DNA of 64,000 nt from positions 2,848,001-2,912,000 of the forward strand of contig OZ245015.1 of assembly GCA_965223705.1 (NCBI GenBank). The letters are read 5' to 3'. Made by a program: the position numbers and the translations under genes. The notes under the pieces were generated by a model that saw nothing but the letters and a program-made list of their open reading frames with translations, was not told the origin of the DNA and made no database searches. This DNA comes from Myxococcota bacterium. Its GTDB lineage: Bacteria > Myxococcota_A > UBA9160 > UBA6930. This document shows, one piece after another, positions 19,347 to 23,971 of the stretch. Position 1 is the stretch's first letter. Every line of letters starts with the position of its first letter.

Positions 19347-19422
19347 TGGTGGGCCGCCAGGGACTCGAACCCTGAACCGGCGGGTTAAAAGCCCGATGCT
19401 CTACCAATTGAGCTAACGGCCC
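19347..19422 (-). tRNA. tRNA-Lys (anticodon UUU), CCA encoded
   Basis: Reverse complement GGGCCGTTAGCTCAATTGGTAGAGCATCGGGCTTTTAACCCGCCGGTTCAGGGTTCGAGTCCCTGGCGGCCCACCA: 76-nt cloverleaf, TTCGA T-loop, CTTTTAA anticodon loop. Confidence 0.97.
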
Positions 19423-19470: not shown

Positions 19471-20379
19471 TTATGGGACCGCCACGCGAGGAACTCGGGA
19501 CGAGAGCACGAGGCCCAATGCGATGGCCAGCGCCCCGACCCAATGGAAAACTGCCAAGTGCTCGCCCAGGAAGACAATTGCGAGAAACGTCCCGAAAAGC
19601 GGGACCATGTGTTGAAACGAGCCCGCCACGCTCGGGCCGACGATGCCCACCGCGCGGTTGAACAAGATGAACGCAACAGCGGTCGGGAACACGCCGATAT
19701 AGACGACGCCGAGCCACGCCCGGGTGTCGTCCGGGAAGCCCCTCTGGCCGACCTCCCAGAGGAAGAACGGCGCGAGAAAAATCGCCGCCAGTAGGTAGAT
19801 CGCCACCAGGAAGAGATACGGAGAGAGGGCCGGATCTTTCCGGCGCACAGCGACGGTGTAGATCGACCAGCAGAACATTCCCCCGAGCATCAGGAGATCG
19901 CCGGGGACGAACGAGAGCGACGCGAGGAGCCGCGGATCGCCCCGGGTCGCGATGAGCACCACGCCGAGGAACGAAACCCCCATGCCGACCGCTTGTGAAA
20001 CGCGCAACCTCTCACGCAGAGCGAAGAAAGCGATGACGGGAATCACAGCTGGACACAGCGATACCGTGAGCGCAGCGTTGATCGCTGTCGTCGTGTGAAG
20101 CGCGTGGTAGACGAGACCGTTGAAGAGCGCCGTGCCGAAAACACCGGCGATCGCCACGAGCCGAGCGTGGTCGCGCAGCCGCGAGAGATTCTCCGGTGCG
20201 TCCCGCAATGCCAGCGGCAACAGCACCACGGCACCCACCGCGTTTCTGAAGAACGCGAGGGTATAGGGCGGAACGTCTTCGTGGAGTCCGCGACCGAAGA
20301 CCACGTTTGTGCCCCACAAGAAGCCGCAAAAAACGAGACTCGTCCTCGCGAACCGGTCGACGGAGGACGCTTCTCCCAT
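19471..20379 (-). CDS. DMT/EamA family transporter
   Basis: ~10 hydrophobic segments; LWGTN, LAFFR, GDLLML, LGE motifs. Confidence 0.9.
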   Translation of the reverse strand: MGEASSVDRFARTSLVFCGFLWGTNVVFGRGLHEDVPPYTLAFFRNAVGAVVLLPLALRDAPENLSRLRDHARLVAIAGVFGTALFNGLVYHALHTTTAINAALTVSLCPAVIPVIAFFALRERLRVSQAVGMGVSFLGVVLIATRGDPRLLASLSFVPGDLLMLGGMFCWSIYTVAVRRKDPALSPYLFLVAIYLLAAIFLAPFFLWEVGQRGFPDDTRAWLGVVYIGVFPTAVAFILFNRAVGIVGPSVAGSFQHMVPLFGTFLAIVFLGEHLAVFHWVGALAIALGLVLSSRVPRVAVP

Positions 20380-20468
20380 GGGGCGCCGACCCTAGCAGAG
20401 GCGCCCGCCGGAAGCGCGAACACAAGTCCAGTAGACTGGGAGACGCAACCTCCAAAGCCAAGGACACC

Positions 20469-21653
20469 ATGATCGACTTCAGCCCGCCCGACGAACTCCT
20501 GGCCCTGCGCGACAAAGTCGCGACGTTCGTCCGAAACGAAATCGTCCCCATGGAGAAGGACCCCCGCCAAGGACCTCATGGTCCCGAGGAATCGCTGCGC
20601 CAGGATCTCGTCGGCAAAGCACGGGACGCGGGGCTCCTCTCCCCGCACGCGCCTGCCGAATGGGGCGGCCTGGGTCTCGACAACATCGGCAACGCCCTGG
20701 TTTTCGAGGCCGCCTGTTACTCGCCGCTCGGCTCCTTGGCCCTCAACATCCAGGCCCCCGACGAGGGAAACGTCCACCTCCTCGACAAAGTCGCGACGGA
20801 CGCGCAAAAGGAACGCTGGCTCCGACCGTTGGCCGAGGGCCGCATCCGCACCGTCTTTCACATGACGGAGCCCGACGGCGGCGCGGGCTCGGACCCGTCG
20901 CTGCTCCGAACCGAGGCGCGAGAAGACGCCGACGGGTGGCTCATCAACGGACGGAAGTGGCTGATCTCCGGAATCGGTGCCCCGGGCGTCGGCCTCAATA
21001 TCATCATGGCGAAGACGCTCAGCGCCTCGGGTGAAGACCTCGGAGCATCGATGTTCCTCCTCGACGGCGAAGTTCCCGGGATGGAGATCGTGCGAACGCT
21101 CGACACGATGGACAGCAACACCGTCGGCGCGCATTGCGAAGTCACCTACGACAACGTCCGCGTCCCGAAAGATCAGATCCTCGGAGAGCCCGGGAAGGGC
21201 TTTCGCTACGCCCAGATTCGCCTCGCACCCGCTCGGCTGACCCACTGCATGCGCTGGCTCGGTCAGGCTGTCCGGTGCCACGAGATCGCCGTCGAGTACG
21301 CGCGAACCCGCACGGCGTTCGGCAAGCCGATCGGTGAGCACGAAGGGGTTGGGTTCCAGCTGGCGGACAACGAGACGGACCTGCATCTGGCACGCCTCGC
21401 GACCTGGCACTGCGCTTGGGTCCTCGATCAAGGGCACAAAGGCCGTCGCGAAAGCAGCCTTGCGAAAGTCTTTGTGTCGGAGGCGTTGTGTCGTGTCGTC
21501 GACCGATGTGTCCAGGTACTCGGCGGCTTGGGCATCACCGCCGATACGATCGTCGAGGCGACGTACCGCGACATCCGCGCGTTTCGTATCTACGACGGCC
21601 CTTCCGAAGTCCACCGCTGGGCGCAGGCGCGCGACATTCTTCGAGGGGCCTGA
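20469..21653 (+). CDS. Acyl-CoA dehydrogenase
   Basis: APDEGN, MTEP..AGSDP, INGRKWLISG, RLAPARLTHCMRWLG, RAFRIYDGPSEVHR. Confidence 0.93.
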   Translation: MIDFSPPDELLALRDKVATFVRNEIVPMEKDPRQGPHGPEESLRQDLVGKARDAGLLSPHAPAEWGGLGLDNIGNALVFEAACYSPLGSLALNIQAPDEGNVHLLDKVATDAQKERWLRPLAEGRIRTVFHMTEPDGGAGSDPSLLRTEAREDADGWLINGRKWLISGIGAPGVGLNIIMAKTLSASGEDLGASMFLLDGEVPGMEIVRTLDTMDSNTVGAHCEVTYDNVRVPKDQILGEPGKGFRYAQIRLAPARLTHCMRWLGQAVRCHEIAVEYARTRTAFGKPIGEHEGVGFQLADNETDLHLARLATWHCAWVLDQGHKGRRESSLAKVFVSEALCRVVDRCVQVLGGLGITADTIVEATYRDIRAFRIYDGPSEVHRWAQARDILRGA

Positions 21654-21663
21654 TCGAAGCCGC

Positions 21664-21692
21664 TTGACTTTCGCCTTTCATTCGCCTAGGTT
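21664..21692 (+). promoter_or_regulatory. Sigma-70-type promoter (-35 TTGACT, 17-nt spacer, -10 TAGGTT)
   Basis: TTGACT 21664-21669, 17 nt, TAGGTT 21687-21692. It points into a region with no credible ORF; predicted start ~21698 coincides with the first stem. Confidence 0.65.
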
Positions 21693-21697
21693 GATCC

Positions 21698-22217
21698 GGT
21701 CTCGAACGAGGGCTTTGGCCATTGGGTCCCCCCCTCTGCTTCAGAGGCCCCGCCGTACGGGTGAAGGTCCTGCTGCAGGCCAGAGCGACCTGGTCGAGAC
21801 GCCACGCTCCGCGGAGGCGGGCGGGCAACAGTCGGTGGGTTCGCACGGGTTAGATGCCCCGGCGAACGCCCGCAGAGGAAGCACGGATACGTGCCCCTCT
21901 GCCGCTAGATCTCGGTATCGGACTTGGGTCGAGATCTGACGGGGTGACACCACTCGCCGAGCTGATCCCGCCCGCTCCGCGGAGATCGGCGCGCGACCCC
22001 TCGCCCACCTTCGAAAACTTTGCGCTAGCGGCTGCTGCCACCGCAGGTGAGCGCCGCGAGACCAGCAGGATGTCCCGAGGCCGTGGCGGGTGGGGGTACC
22101 GCGCGCAGTTCCGCAGCGCCGGCGACCCGTACGAAGGATCTCGTAACCCCGTCGGCGCGAGGATGTTTGAGCACGGTGCCCCCACCCGCCACGGCCCTAC
22201 CTCGGTCTTCCGGGTAG
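21698..22217 (+). ncRNA. Candidate large multi-domain structured non-coding RNA (family not recognised)
   Basis: Three closed domains (21699-21800, 21807-21984, 22079-22196) with long stems. All wobble pairs I found are G-U on the + strand. Upstream promoter; no credible ORF. Confidence 0.65.
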
Positions 22218-22224
22218 AGCGCCG

Positions 22225-22656
22225 CTAAGTCAGCGCCTGCGCGACGTTATCGAGCGACACGTTGTAGAGCGTGGCGAAGATTTCGCGGATCTCTTCCTCG
22301 GGCTGGCCCACCGGCTCCCAAGTACTGCTCCAGGTCACTCGTGAAGTTTGGTCGCCCTCGGCGACCACCGTCATTGTGGCGACGTAGTCGACAACGGGTA
22401 GCGGACTGTCTCCGATCGCCGCGTAGCGAAAACTCATTCCGTCGTCGTCGAACGCCAAGAGCTCTTCGCTGATCCGACCGGTGAAGCCCGTGGCCGGGTC
22501 GAGATCGGCGCTGCGAACGGAGCCTACGCCCTCGCCCTCCACCTGGACCGGCCCGACGCCGGGGATCCACTTGTGCGTCCCACCCCATTCGGAAACCATC
22601 GCCCACACGCGCTCGGCCGGAGCCGAGATTGTCTTCGTCACACTGACTTTACCCAT
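22225..22656 (-). CDS. SRPBCC (polyketide cyclase-like) family protein
   Basis: ISAPAERVWAMV..W..W.P, GEGVGSVR, SRVTWS. Confidence 0.85.
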   Translation of the reverse strand: MGKVSVTKTISAPAERVWAMVSEWGGTHKWIPGVGPVQVEGEGVGSVRSADLDPATGFTGRISEELLAFDDDGMSFRYAAIGDSPLPVVDYVATMTVVAEGDQTSRVTWSSTWEPVGQPEEEIREIFATLYNVSLDNVAQALT

Positions 22657-22666
22657 GGCTCGAAGC

Positions 22667-23971
22667 CTACCCCCGCGGTTTTGGAAACGGCGCTCGCCGG
22701 CAAATGGTCTGATCGCGACCCGGGCCGATCGAAATCAGATCGACCGGTACGCCGGCGAGCACTTCGATGCGCTCGATGTACCGTTGCGCCGCGGCGGGCA
22801 ATCCGTCGAACTCCGTCACCCCGGTGATGTCTTCCGACCACCCCGGCATGACCTCGTAGACCGGTTTCGCCCGCTCCACTTCACCCAACGTCATCGGGAA
22901 GGATTCGCTCCGCTTGCCGTCGATGTCGTAGGCGACGGCAACGGGAACCTCATCGAGCCCGGACAAGATATCGAGCTTGTTGACCGCCAGAGACGTGAAT
23001 CCGTTGACGATTGCCGCCTCTCGCAACACCACGGCGTCGAGCCAACCACAGCGGCGCCTGCGGCCGGTGGTGGCGCCGAATTCGTGCCCTCGCTCGCCGA
23101 GCCACTCGCCCCGGGGGCCGGTGTCCTCGCTGGGGAACGGGCCACCCCCGACTCGCGTCGCGTAGGCCTTCGTAATGCCCAGCACGCTGTCGATCCGCGT
23201 CGGTCCGACTCCGGACCCCGTGCACACGGCACCCGCCACGCAGTTCGACGACGTCACGTAGGGATAGGTCCCGTGGTCGATGTCGAGGAAGGTTCCCTGG
23301 GCACCCTCGAACAGCACGTTCTTTCCGTCGCGGAGGGCGCGATCGAGGATGTGGCCGGTGTGATCGACGTAAGGCGCCAGGCGCTTGCCGAGTTCGAGGC
23401 ACGACTCGATCAGCCCTTCGACATCGATCGGTGAGTCGCCGTGGACATCGCGCAGCTCGCGGTTCTTGTCGGCACCCGCTGCCGACAGGACCTCGCGCAA
23501 GCGCGCCGGCTCGAGCAGATCCGCGACCCGAATTCCCCGACGCGCCACCTTGTCCTCGTAGGTCGGACCGATGCCGCGGCCCGTGGTGCCGATCGCACTC
23601 CCGCCGCGCGCGCGTTCACGCGCCTGGTCGAGCGCCACGTGCCAATCGAGGATGACGTGGGCGCGCCCGGACACGCGTACCCGAGACGGATCGCGGAGCA
23701 CGCCGCGTCGCTTGAGCTCGTCGAGCTCGTGCAGCAGTACTTCCGGGTTCACGACGACGCCGGGGCCGATCAGATTGATTGTCCCGTCCTGCAGTACACC
23801 CGACGGGACCACGTGGAGGACCGTTTGCTCGCCGTCGACCACCAACGTGTGGCCGGCGTTGTTGCCGCCTTGGAAACGCGCGACCAGCTGTGCCCGTAGC
23901 GCGAGCCAATCGACGATCTTGCCCTTCCCCTCGTCTCCCCACTGCGCCCCGACGGCGACGAGAGCGGTCAT
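22667..23971 (-). CDS. purA: Adenylosuccinate synthetase
   Basis: GAQWGDEGKGKIVD, RFQGGNNAGHT, GTTGRGIGPTY, FEGAQG, GTYPYVTSS, EFGATTGRRRRCGWLD. Confidence 0.98.
   Translation of the reverse strand: MTALVAVGAQWGDEGKGKIVDWLALRAQLVARFQGGNNAGHTLVVDGEQTVLHVVPSGVLQDGTINLIGPGVVVNPEVLLHELDELKRRGVLRDPSRVRVSGRAHVILDWHVALDQARERARGGSAIGTTGRGIGPTYEDKVARRGIRVADLLEPARLREVLSAAGADKNRELRDVHGDSPIDVEGLIESCLELGKRLAPYVDHTGHILDRALRDGKNVLFEGAQGTFLDIDHGTYPYVTSSNCVAGAVCTGSGVGPTRIDSVLGITKAYATRVGGGPFPSEDTGPRGEWLGERGHEFGATTGRRRRCGWLDAVVLREAAIVNGFTSLAVNKLDILSGLDEVPVAVAYDIDGKRSESFPMTLGEVERAKPVYEVMPGWSEDITGVTEFDGLPAAAQRYIERIEVLAGVPVDLISIGPGRDQTICRRAPFPKPRG

Follow-up and report, generated by a model that had tools for sequence, protein, structure and literature searches.

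A candidate LexA-controlled RNA and a probable IS5-type remnant in a convergent gap near purA of a Myxococcota bacterium

The convergent gap and its structured sequence

The window analysed here is a stretch of 64,000 nucleotides from a Myxococcota genome that is 95% complete (G000). Within it, a gap of 571 bp (21654-22224) separates the convergent genes for an acyl-CoA dehydrogenase (ACAD) and an SRPBCC protein. A first-pass annotation had put the gap at 570 bp and had described it as a candidate structured RNA of about 520 nt, or a processed polycistron of two or three small RNAs, made of three domains (A, B and C) behind a promoter of its own. The features of the locus are as follows.

19350..19422, - strand: tRNA-Lys(UUU), the second syntenic anchor, which adjoins the promoter directly in many relatives (Rfam, synteny)
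20307..21653, + strand: acyl-CoA dehydrogenase gene, left neighbour (ORF with Pfam Acyl-CoA_dh N/M/1; start codon uncertain)
21664..21692, + strand: sigma-70-type promoter with -35 TTGACT at 21664-69, a 17-nt spacer and -10 TAGGTT at 21687-92 (comparative pattern)
21670..21684, + strand: predicted operator for LexA in the promoter spacer, a TTCG-N7-TTCG direct repeat (box common to SOS genes)
21698..21804, + strand: domain A, 5' part of the candidate RNA, a long irregular hairpin with a C7 run at 21728-34 (single copy; fold z)
21805..21986, + strand: domain B, a long closing helix (including 21817-25/21967-75) with a three-hairpin junction as cap (single copy; z -8.0; g4 model)
21987..22024, + strand: C-rich unstructured linker, possible 3' end of the RNA (z -0.5 over 21987-22063)
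22025..22075, + strand: putative 3'-terminal remnant of an IS5-family transposase gene, beginning at CTAG (alignment to L366)
22076..22224, + strand: domain C, a dispersed hairpin repeat with the apparent decayed right end of an IS5-like element, abutting the SRPBCC stop codon (copies; YTA offset)
22225..22656, - strand: SRPBCC (polyketide cyclase 2) gene, convergent (ORF, Pfam)
22667..23971, - strand: purA, syntenic anchor (synteny, Pfam)

Part of the first description was borne out. The setting is convergent, TTGACT-N17-TAGGTT opens the gap at the positions claimed, and the stems that had been given by coordinates all pair, including 21807-25/21967-84 and 22079-101/22174-96. Both small hairpins of domain A (CCTCTG-CTT-CAGAGG and CCCG-CCGTA-CGGG) are in the sequence. 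Compared with shuffled sequence, the whole region folds beyond chance on either strand (z -7.5 on +, -8.0 on -). By part, the scores on + and - were -2.8 and -0.9 for domain A, -8.0 and -6.7 for domain B, -0.5 and 0.0 for the linker at 21987-22063, and -9.4 and -5.6 for domain C. Control windows, 774 in number, were drawn from 116 crudely called convergent gaps of the same genome; domain B lies 6.1 SD under their GC trend and the best control window 3.55 SD. The most stable control window (G000:C1:1536518-1536700) holds a long hairpin 5' of a short lysine/arginine-rich ORF (shuffle z -5.7).

An Rfam scan of the locus returned nothing at cut-off, as the annotation had expected of a new family, and at E<=10 there were only eight weak matches, seven of them to plant or animal miRNA hairpin models and one to a Streptomyces sRNA. 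Across the window, tRNA-Lys at 19350-19422 was the sole family call. RNase P RNA, tmRNA, SRP RNA and tRNA, already dismissed for the locus, were each found elsewhere in the genome, and with no model match here they were rejected as identities of A+B. Domains A and B together (21698-21986) are single copy in the genome. The spacing from the -10 predicts a start site at about 21698-99, and in the predicted fold of domain A the first three C of the C7 run (21728-34) are unpaired, leaving the run partly open. No terminator was called between B and C by a generic scan. The two + strand ORFs of the gap that were tested gave no Pfam match, and no membrane-type segment was seen by eye in the gap's + strand ORFs. 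Domain A (21699-21804) ends in a 7-bp stem followed by GCCA, which resembles a tRNA acceptor and may be chance; no tRNA was called at this end, and no GCCA-type end was noticed in the homologues from the related genus g4 described below. At a separate site, G000:C1:4538091-4538167, ARAGORN reports a tRNA-Arg whose anticodon is GCG; no ACG form was called.

Domain C and its dispersed copies

Genome-wide copy counts divided the gap. A+B proved single copy, whereas domain C has 11 further full copies (80-89% identity) and two partial ones in the genome. Dispersed copies were the very observation that the first-pass annotation had named as speaking against its proposal, and for this reason the 520-nt RNA does not stand as one three-domain molecule. 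The other 13 copies are accompanied by neither A, B nor the promoter. In all 13 a convergent gene ends within 25 nt of the genomic right side, and in 12 of the 13 one also ends within about 70 nt on the left. Domain C was absent from the syntenic homologues inspected. Of 193 genomes of the order, 16 contain its core motif, one of them as many as 34 times.

Further comparison pointed to an origin for the repeat. At locus L366 in a relative, a near-identical hairpin lies inside the 3' end of a complete 1.2-kb element that is flanked by CTAG on both sides and whose ORF is a transposase with DDE_Tnp_1 and DUF772 (Pfam). The 50 nt before domain C match the last transposase codons of L366 with a score of 38 (random mean -0.9, maximum 23 of 2000), and in contigs from four runs holding the window's DNA, all of one sample, the hairpin also continues into an L366-type right end. 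IS5 elements prefer YTA(R) as their target. A YTA begins 25-27 nt past the stem in 11 of 13 copies against a background of 1.5%, an offset that equals that of the CTAG of L366, and in the window this YTA is the stop codon of the SRPBCC gene. Domain C, whose flanks match an IS5-family transposon at its 3' end, is read as a mobile-element remnant. The segment 22025-22224 is best read as a non-autonomous IS5-family remnant that went in where the convergent gene has its stop codon; on the best explanation it comprises the hairpin, about 50 nt before it and 27 nt after it, and is not part of the RNA family.

As a non-autonomous (MITE-like) IS5 derivative, domain C has the dispersed short copies, the fixed right end abutting YTA, the lack of a transposase of its own and an autonomous homologue in L366, the complete element that carries the near-identical hairpin. 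It differs in that the left ends are ragged and variable, the right end is decayed and no paired terminal repeats were recognised, and in that its inner loop motif also occurs in repeats of relatives without IS5 sequence. Among the C-type loci examined in relatives, L366 is the only one inside an IS5, the others showing no IS5 sequence, and no IS5 transposase was found in G000. The hairpin may be an older repeat that was captured by an IS5. In the repeats at L364-L398 the inner loop motif is almost unchanged, and free variation is seen in the outer stems and in the inner loops, which are 35-118 nt long. A REP/RAYT origin was also considered, and PF01797 (Y1 tyrosine transposase) had no match in G000; a plasmid collection held no match to domain C. 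Spread across phyla, suggested by five named records, was set aside as weak, one record being the same DNA as a locus of this order.

The direction of the wobble pairs had been offered as a mark of selection on RNA. In the stems given by coordinates all wobbles are indeed G-U on the + strand, and the repeat has the same bias (25 G-U against 7 A-C cells on one strand of its copies). The stems of C covary among the copies as well (12 of 39 pairs). Because C both covaries and favours G-U, wobble direction cannot tell an RNA gene and a repeat apart. A single RNA or a polycistron with domain C as a functional part could appeal to the same covariation, to the placing of C on the + strand and to possible read-through where no terminator is called. 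It is scarcely credible, given the 13 copies that stand without A, B or promoter, the syntenic homologues without C, and the IS5-like flanks. In its present place domain C may act as a 3' barrier. The gap is best read as two unrelated elements, a candidate SOS RNA (A+B) and a transposon-derived repeat (C), and it carries the caution that a dispersed repeat can supply much of the apparent structure of a gap.

The predicted LexA box and the tRNA-Lys/purA locus of relatives

The promoter of A+B had been taken for a sigma-70 promoter of ordinary kind. Its hexamers and spacing are present, but it is not plain, carrying the predicted LexA box of the lineage between -35 and -10. A generic promoter scan made no call at 21664-21692, and support is comparative instead. 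The strict promoter-plus-box pattern was found in 132 of 193 genomes of the order (232 matches, against 3 for a reversed control) and often sits upstream of lexA. Among 110 distinct promoters of the pattern, the hexamer spaced at 17 nt has T1 in 75, A2 in 86 and T6 in 88. A loose search of the main contig for the -35 plus the box gave three matches, one being the site at 21664 and another preceding lexA. In G000 the TTCG-N7-TTCG box also precedes lexA, dnaE2, a radical SAM gene and an imuA-like gene with a RecA domain, and the A+B promoter thus has its operator in common with lexA as well as core SOS genes. Taken alone, the repeat shows no genome-wide enrichment (543 matches at N7, with similar numbers at other spacings), so it is the promoter context that carries the signal of the box. 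In Caulobacter the LexA operator is the direct repeat GTTC-N7-GTTC (PMC9578287, Table 1). The box described here is likewise a direct repeat with an 11-nt period, and differs in its consensus, TTCG-N7-TTCG, and in being usually fused to the -35 hexamer. The imuABC genes are a known SOS cassette (PMC9578287). Judged by its operator, the A+B promoter is probably repressed by LexA and part of the SOS response.

Several observations concern the wider regulon. Boxes are predicted in G000:C1 at 4129072, 3908904, 3899914, 816434, 2806580, 4169634 and 2760775, and the predicted LexA regulon comprises lexA, which spans C1:4128427-4129026, dnaE2, the imuA-like gene and the radical SAM gene, together with three AT-rich boxes whose target is unclear. 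A metagenome scan for the promoter gave 90 loci, mostly of lexA and other genes, and in many metagenome contigs lexA follows the box together with the same -10. A family of large ORFs, with up to several copies per genome, stands behind LexA promoters (L004, L081, L091-L093, L114-L116 and others) and looks like an SOS-controlled mobile gene. Its leaders serve below as controls. We presume it to be 'DUF222-like', a label without Pfam support, a 482-aa part of the ORF having given no match in a Pfam scan. At L084 (genome G039), a LexA promoter lies directly 5' of a two-gene pair that resembles a HigB-HigA toxin-antitoxin module.

In relatives from several families, this promoter is often found immediately after tRNA-Lys(UUU), pointing toward purA or a PF03372 nuclease gene, and it often leads a single-copy structured sequence. 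The window has its LexA promoter at this syntenic site, with EamA and ACAD genes intervening on the tRNA side and SRPBCC on the purA side. The locus is patchy. The promoter was found in at least 8 of 68 tRNA-anchored loci, which were read to 2.6 kb at most, so that the site in the window itself was missed; it is absent from G001, a reduced genome of the same genus. In g4, a genus of the same family as the window, the promoter leads a sequence of 252-274 nt in six of six genomes, with one strong model match per genome. It opens with a C-rich leader, continues with an irregular hairpin in its 5' part and then has a closing helix whose cap is multibranched, and A+B follows this same plan. In this g4 sequence 28 of 60 pairs change on both sides over nine covarying helices, 93% of cells pair and none of 500 shuffles scored as high, which is strong but not formal evidence, coming from six related sequences with the structure drawn from the same alignment. 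Two of the six fold as well or better on the minus strand.

Other families have in common a helix whose 5' strand resembles GCGGGCGGGC and which a C-rich loop usually closes. At 13 hand-picked loci outside the window's family, 8 of its 13 pairs covary, a count that, like the others, comes from few related sequences and structures derived from the same alignments. A short-helix model gave matches in 11 of 150 genomes, namely at the seven training loci, L359, L361 and two false positions. L359 is a new match 151 nt behind a box, and L361 has a box-like site 483 nt upstream; the two false matches, L360 and L362, lie in coding sequence without the promoter. The helix model also found L242, which lies behind the promoter, and L147, which the g4 model matches as well (E 0.007). 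At 17 bits or more, the pair profile recovered 16 of 38 syntenic loci (training loci included), no lexA leader out of 64, and 5 of the 33 leaders from the repeated ORF family (maximum 18.7), and in 16 of the 38 syntenic loci the helix score was below 14. Rfam gave nothing relevant on 20 homologue loci, and no 6C match. Separately, in family f12 a LexA promoter is followed by another structured sequence, distinct and well conserved, about 130 nt long (L085, L086, L088). In L086 and L088 it finishes with a hairpin that bears a T-run, and in L088 it is convergent with purA. It is possibly another form of the tRNA-Lys/purA SOS RNA.

The window copy was then set against these models. A model built from g4 only placed 21808-21985 (+) first among 291 matches in the window (13.8 bits, E 0.14), with the ends and strand right and 13.8 bits on + against 5.2 on - at domain B. 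A search of the whole genome with this model, which scores some candidates only, had its best match elsewhere (18.3 bits, E 1.19) and did not report the A+B locus. The short-hairpin model with the C-rich loop had no match in the window. The core helix at 21817-25/21967-75 scores 16.8 bits, which ranks about 1440 of 3851 in the genome and is level with the best control leaders (16.7 and 18.7). It is without the C-rich loop, the C-rich parts being 21728-34 and the linker after B. A blastn search of 193 genomes with A+B gave short matches and no close homologue; those to the 3' arm of B in relatives, mostly in coding sequence, were dropped as chance. Nor did any of the 90 metagenome promoter loci align to A+B, and the plasmid collection held no match to it. 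As these searches gave no close homologue and the model match is not significant, orthology of A+B is argued from promoter, position and common plan. Comparison supports the family well in relatives and more weakly for the window copy, and the case for counting A+B in the tRNA-Lys/purA RNA family is suggestive.

Two other readings of the locus were weighed. In one, the SOS promoter is real and its product is without function of its own, transcription running antisense toward the purA-SRPBCC operon while A+B acts as a terminator or barrier or is the relic of an unknown repeat. The locus is always convergent with the purA unit, its content and length vary greatly, down to almost nothing in L290 and L348, both strands fold well, and the sequence link of A+B to any homologue is weak. 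Against this, a terminator would need less than the nine covarying helices of g4, the helix retains its sequence and C-rich loop from family to family, and A+B is single copy and has no likeness to IS5 above random (local score 57.5, random mean 60), so that decay from an IS5 was rejected. We consider a functionless product rather unlikely. The other reading is a structured mRNA for a small SOS protein, either a type I toxin or a division inhibitor, and it draws on short ORFs at the syntenic loci of genera g70, g72 and g45, some with a ribosome-binding site and in-frame indels, and on the existence of LexA-controlled type I toxin loci, agrB and istR (PMC5014011). In g4 the conserved loop motif falls in frame 0 in two sequences and frame 2 in four, and the ORFs from the leading ATG run from 23 to more than 89 codons; the g4 sequence is for these reasons not a conserved peptide. 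The peptide motifs that suggested such a protein in L045 and L251 turned out to be an antisense shadow of the PF03372 nuclease gene. With the ORFs of the gap lacking Pfam matches and membrane-type segments as described above, an mRNA is very improbable. Short ORFs with in-frame indels were noted at the syntenic site in L026, L028, L033, L035 and L272 (g70), in L034 and L102, and in L031 and L039. The g70 and L034-type ORFs have a C-terminal motif similar to what is read from the antisense strand of the nuclease gene that stands there in other genomes, and a gene born from the antisense strand is possible.

A possible role for A+B and its likeness to known RNAs

On balance, A+B is best read as an undescribed, SOS-induced small RNA. 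The account that we hold, with moderate confidence, is that a LexA-repressed promoter drives a single-copy non-coding RNA comprising A and B, an expanded form of the tRNA-Lys/purA SOS locus of the order, with C as a separate IS5 remnant. A structured non-coding transcript from the promoter, as first annotated, is plausible at about 290 nt, not at 520. In this scheme LexA would occupy the site between -35 and -10 and repress the promoter, and DNA damage would lift the repression. A stable RNA of about 290-325 nt would then accumulate, and its exposed C-rich loops would pair with G-rich ribosome-binding regions of target mRNAs without Hfq, in the manner of 6C RNA. What recurs as an exposed element in the family is C-rich, and a search of G000 (95% complete) gave no Hfq; both points match 6C RNA. 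Given a functional RNA, pairing through C-rich loops is the most likely mode by analogy, held tentatively at somewhat under an even chance. For the window RNA this step is weak, since its C-rich parts lie off the helix cap.

Binding of a protein is the main alternative to C-rich pairing. A+B could be an SOS-induced sponge for CsrA, which is encoded in G000, and two GGA do lie in hairpin loops of B (21885, 21920). Measured against sponges of the CsrB/RsmY type, A+B has just these two loop GGAs and no Rfam match, and the short homologues keep C-rich loops, not GGA loops. It could also be an RNA-polymerase decoy in place of a missing 6S RNA. No 6S match was found in G000, and relatives that have 6S exceed it by about 138 nt at the syntenic 6S site, where two of them measure 248-249 nt from promoter to next ORF and G000 111 nt. 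The argument is tempered by a profile from seven 6S homologues of the order, which finds nothing in G000, and by the shape of B, whose cap is multibranched and not a central bubble. Either form of protein binding appears quite improbable. The shortened 6S site (G000:C1:2651300-2651450) keeps a TTGACA promoter, and 6S matches occur in only 9 of 61 genomes of the order, with none in families f1, f8, f9, f11 and f12.

A broader view of the SOS RNA would see an order-wide, modular family of LexA-repressed RNAs in which a constant helix is capped by anything from a 6-nt C-rich loop to a covarying multibranch of 150 nt, the large forms (window, g4) being SOS-induced scaffold or decoy RNAs that possibly replace a lost 6S. 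We regard this as conceivable and on present comparisons unlikely. If true, it would give the DNA-damage response of an uncultured lineage an RNA arm. Few small RNAs are known in LexA regulons, and the family offers a predicted trigger (DNA damage), a defined operator and a covarying structure. Searches of the open-licence literature gave no paper on the RNA, on the TTCG box in this lineage or on repeat C, and no small RNA of a LexA regulon in this lineage.

Among known RNAs, 6S RNA (RF00013) was rejected as an identity for A+B, which has no model match at the locus, no counterpart to its rod with central bubble and a syntenic site of its own elsewhere, and bacterial Y RNA was rejected with no match to PF05731 (Ro60/TROVE) in the 95% complete genome. 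DinR of Klebsiella is an SOS small RNA able to block division (PMC10907235). It resembles A+B, as do AgrB and IstR-1, in being a small RNA of the LexA regulon. DinR differs in being cut from the 3' end of an mRNA and in needing Hfq (PMC10907235), which was not found in G000, and AgrB and IstR-1 differ in that no toxin gene is seen beside A+B. In Corynebacterium 6C RNA is tied to LexA (PMC5014011), and in Mycobacterium its C-rich loops pair with mRNAs and need no chaperone (PMC6486639). A+B is not itself a 6C RNA; RF01066 has no match at the locus and its best match in G000, elsewhere, reaches 22.6 bits against a cut-off of 47. It is three to four times longer than the 75-position model, has a multibranch domain, and belongs to another phylum with an operator that is a direct repeat inside the core promoter. 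Exposed C-rich loops are clear in the short homologues, and A+B has one partly open C7 run and a C-rich linker. 6C RNA is most likely the closest working analogue of the candidate RNA: its promoter carries a LexA operator, it is linked to DNA damage (in C. glutamicum), its host is high in GC, and it pairs through C-rich loops without Hfq, as is proposed for the RNA family described here.
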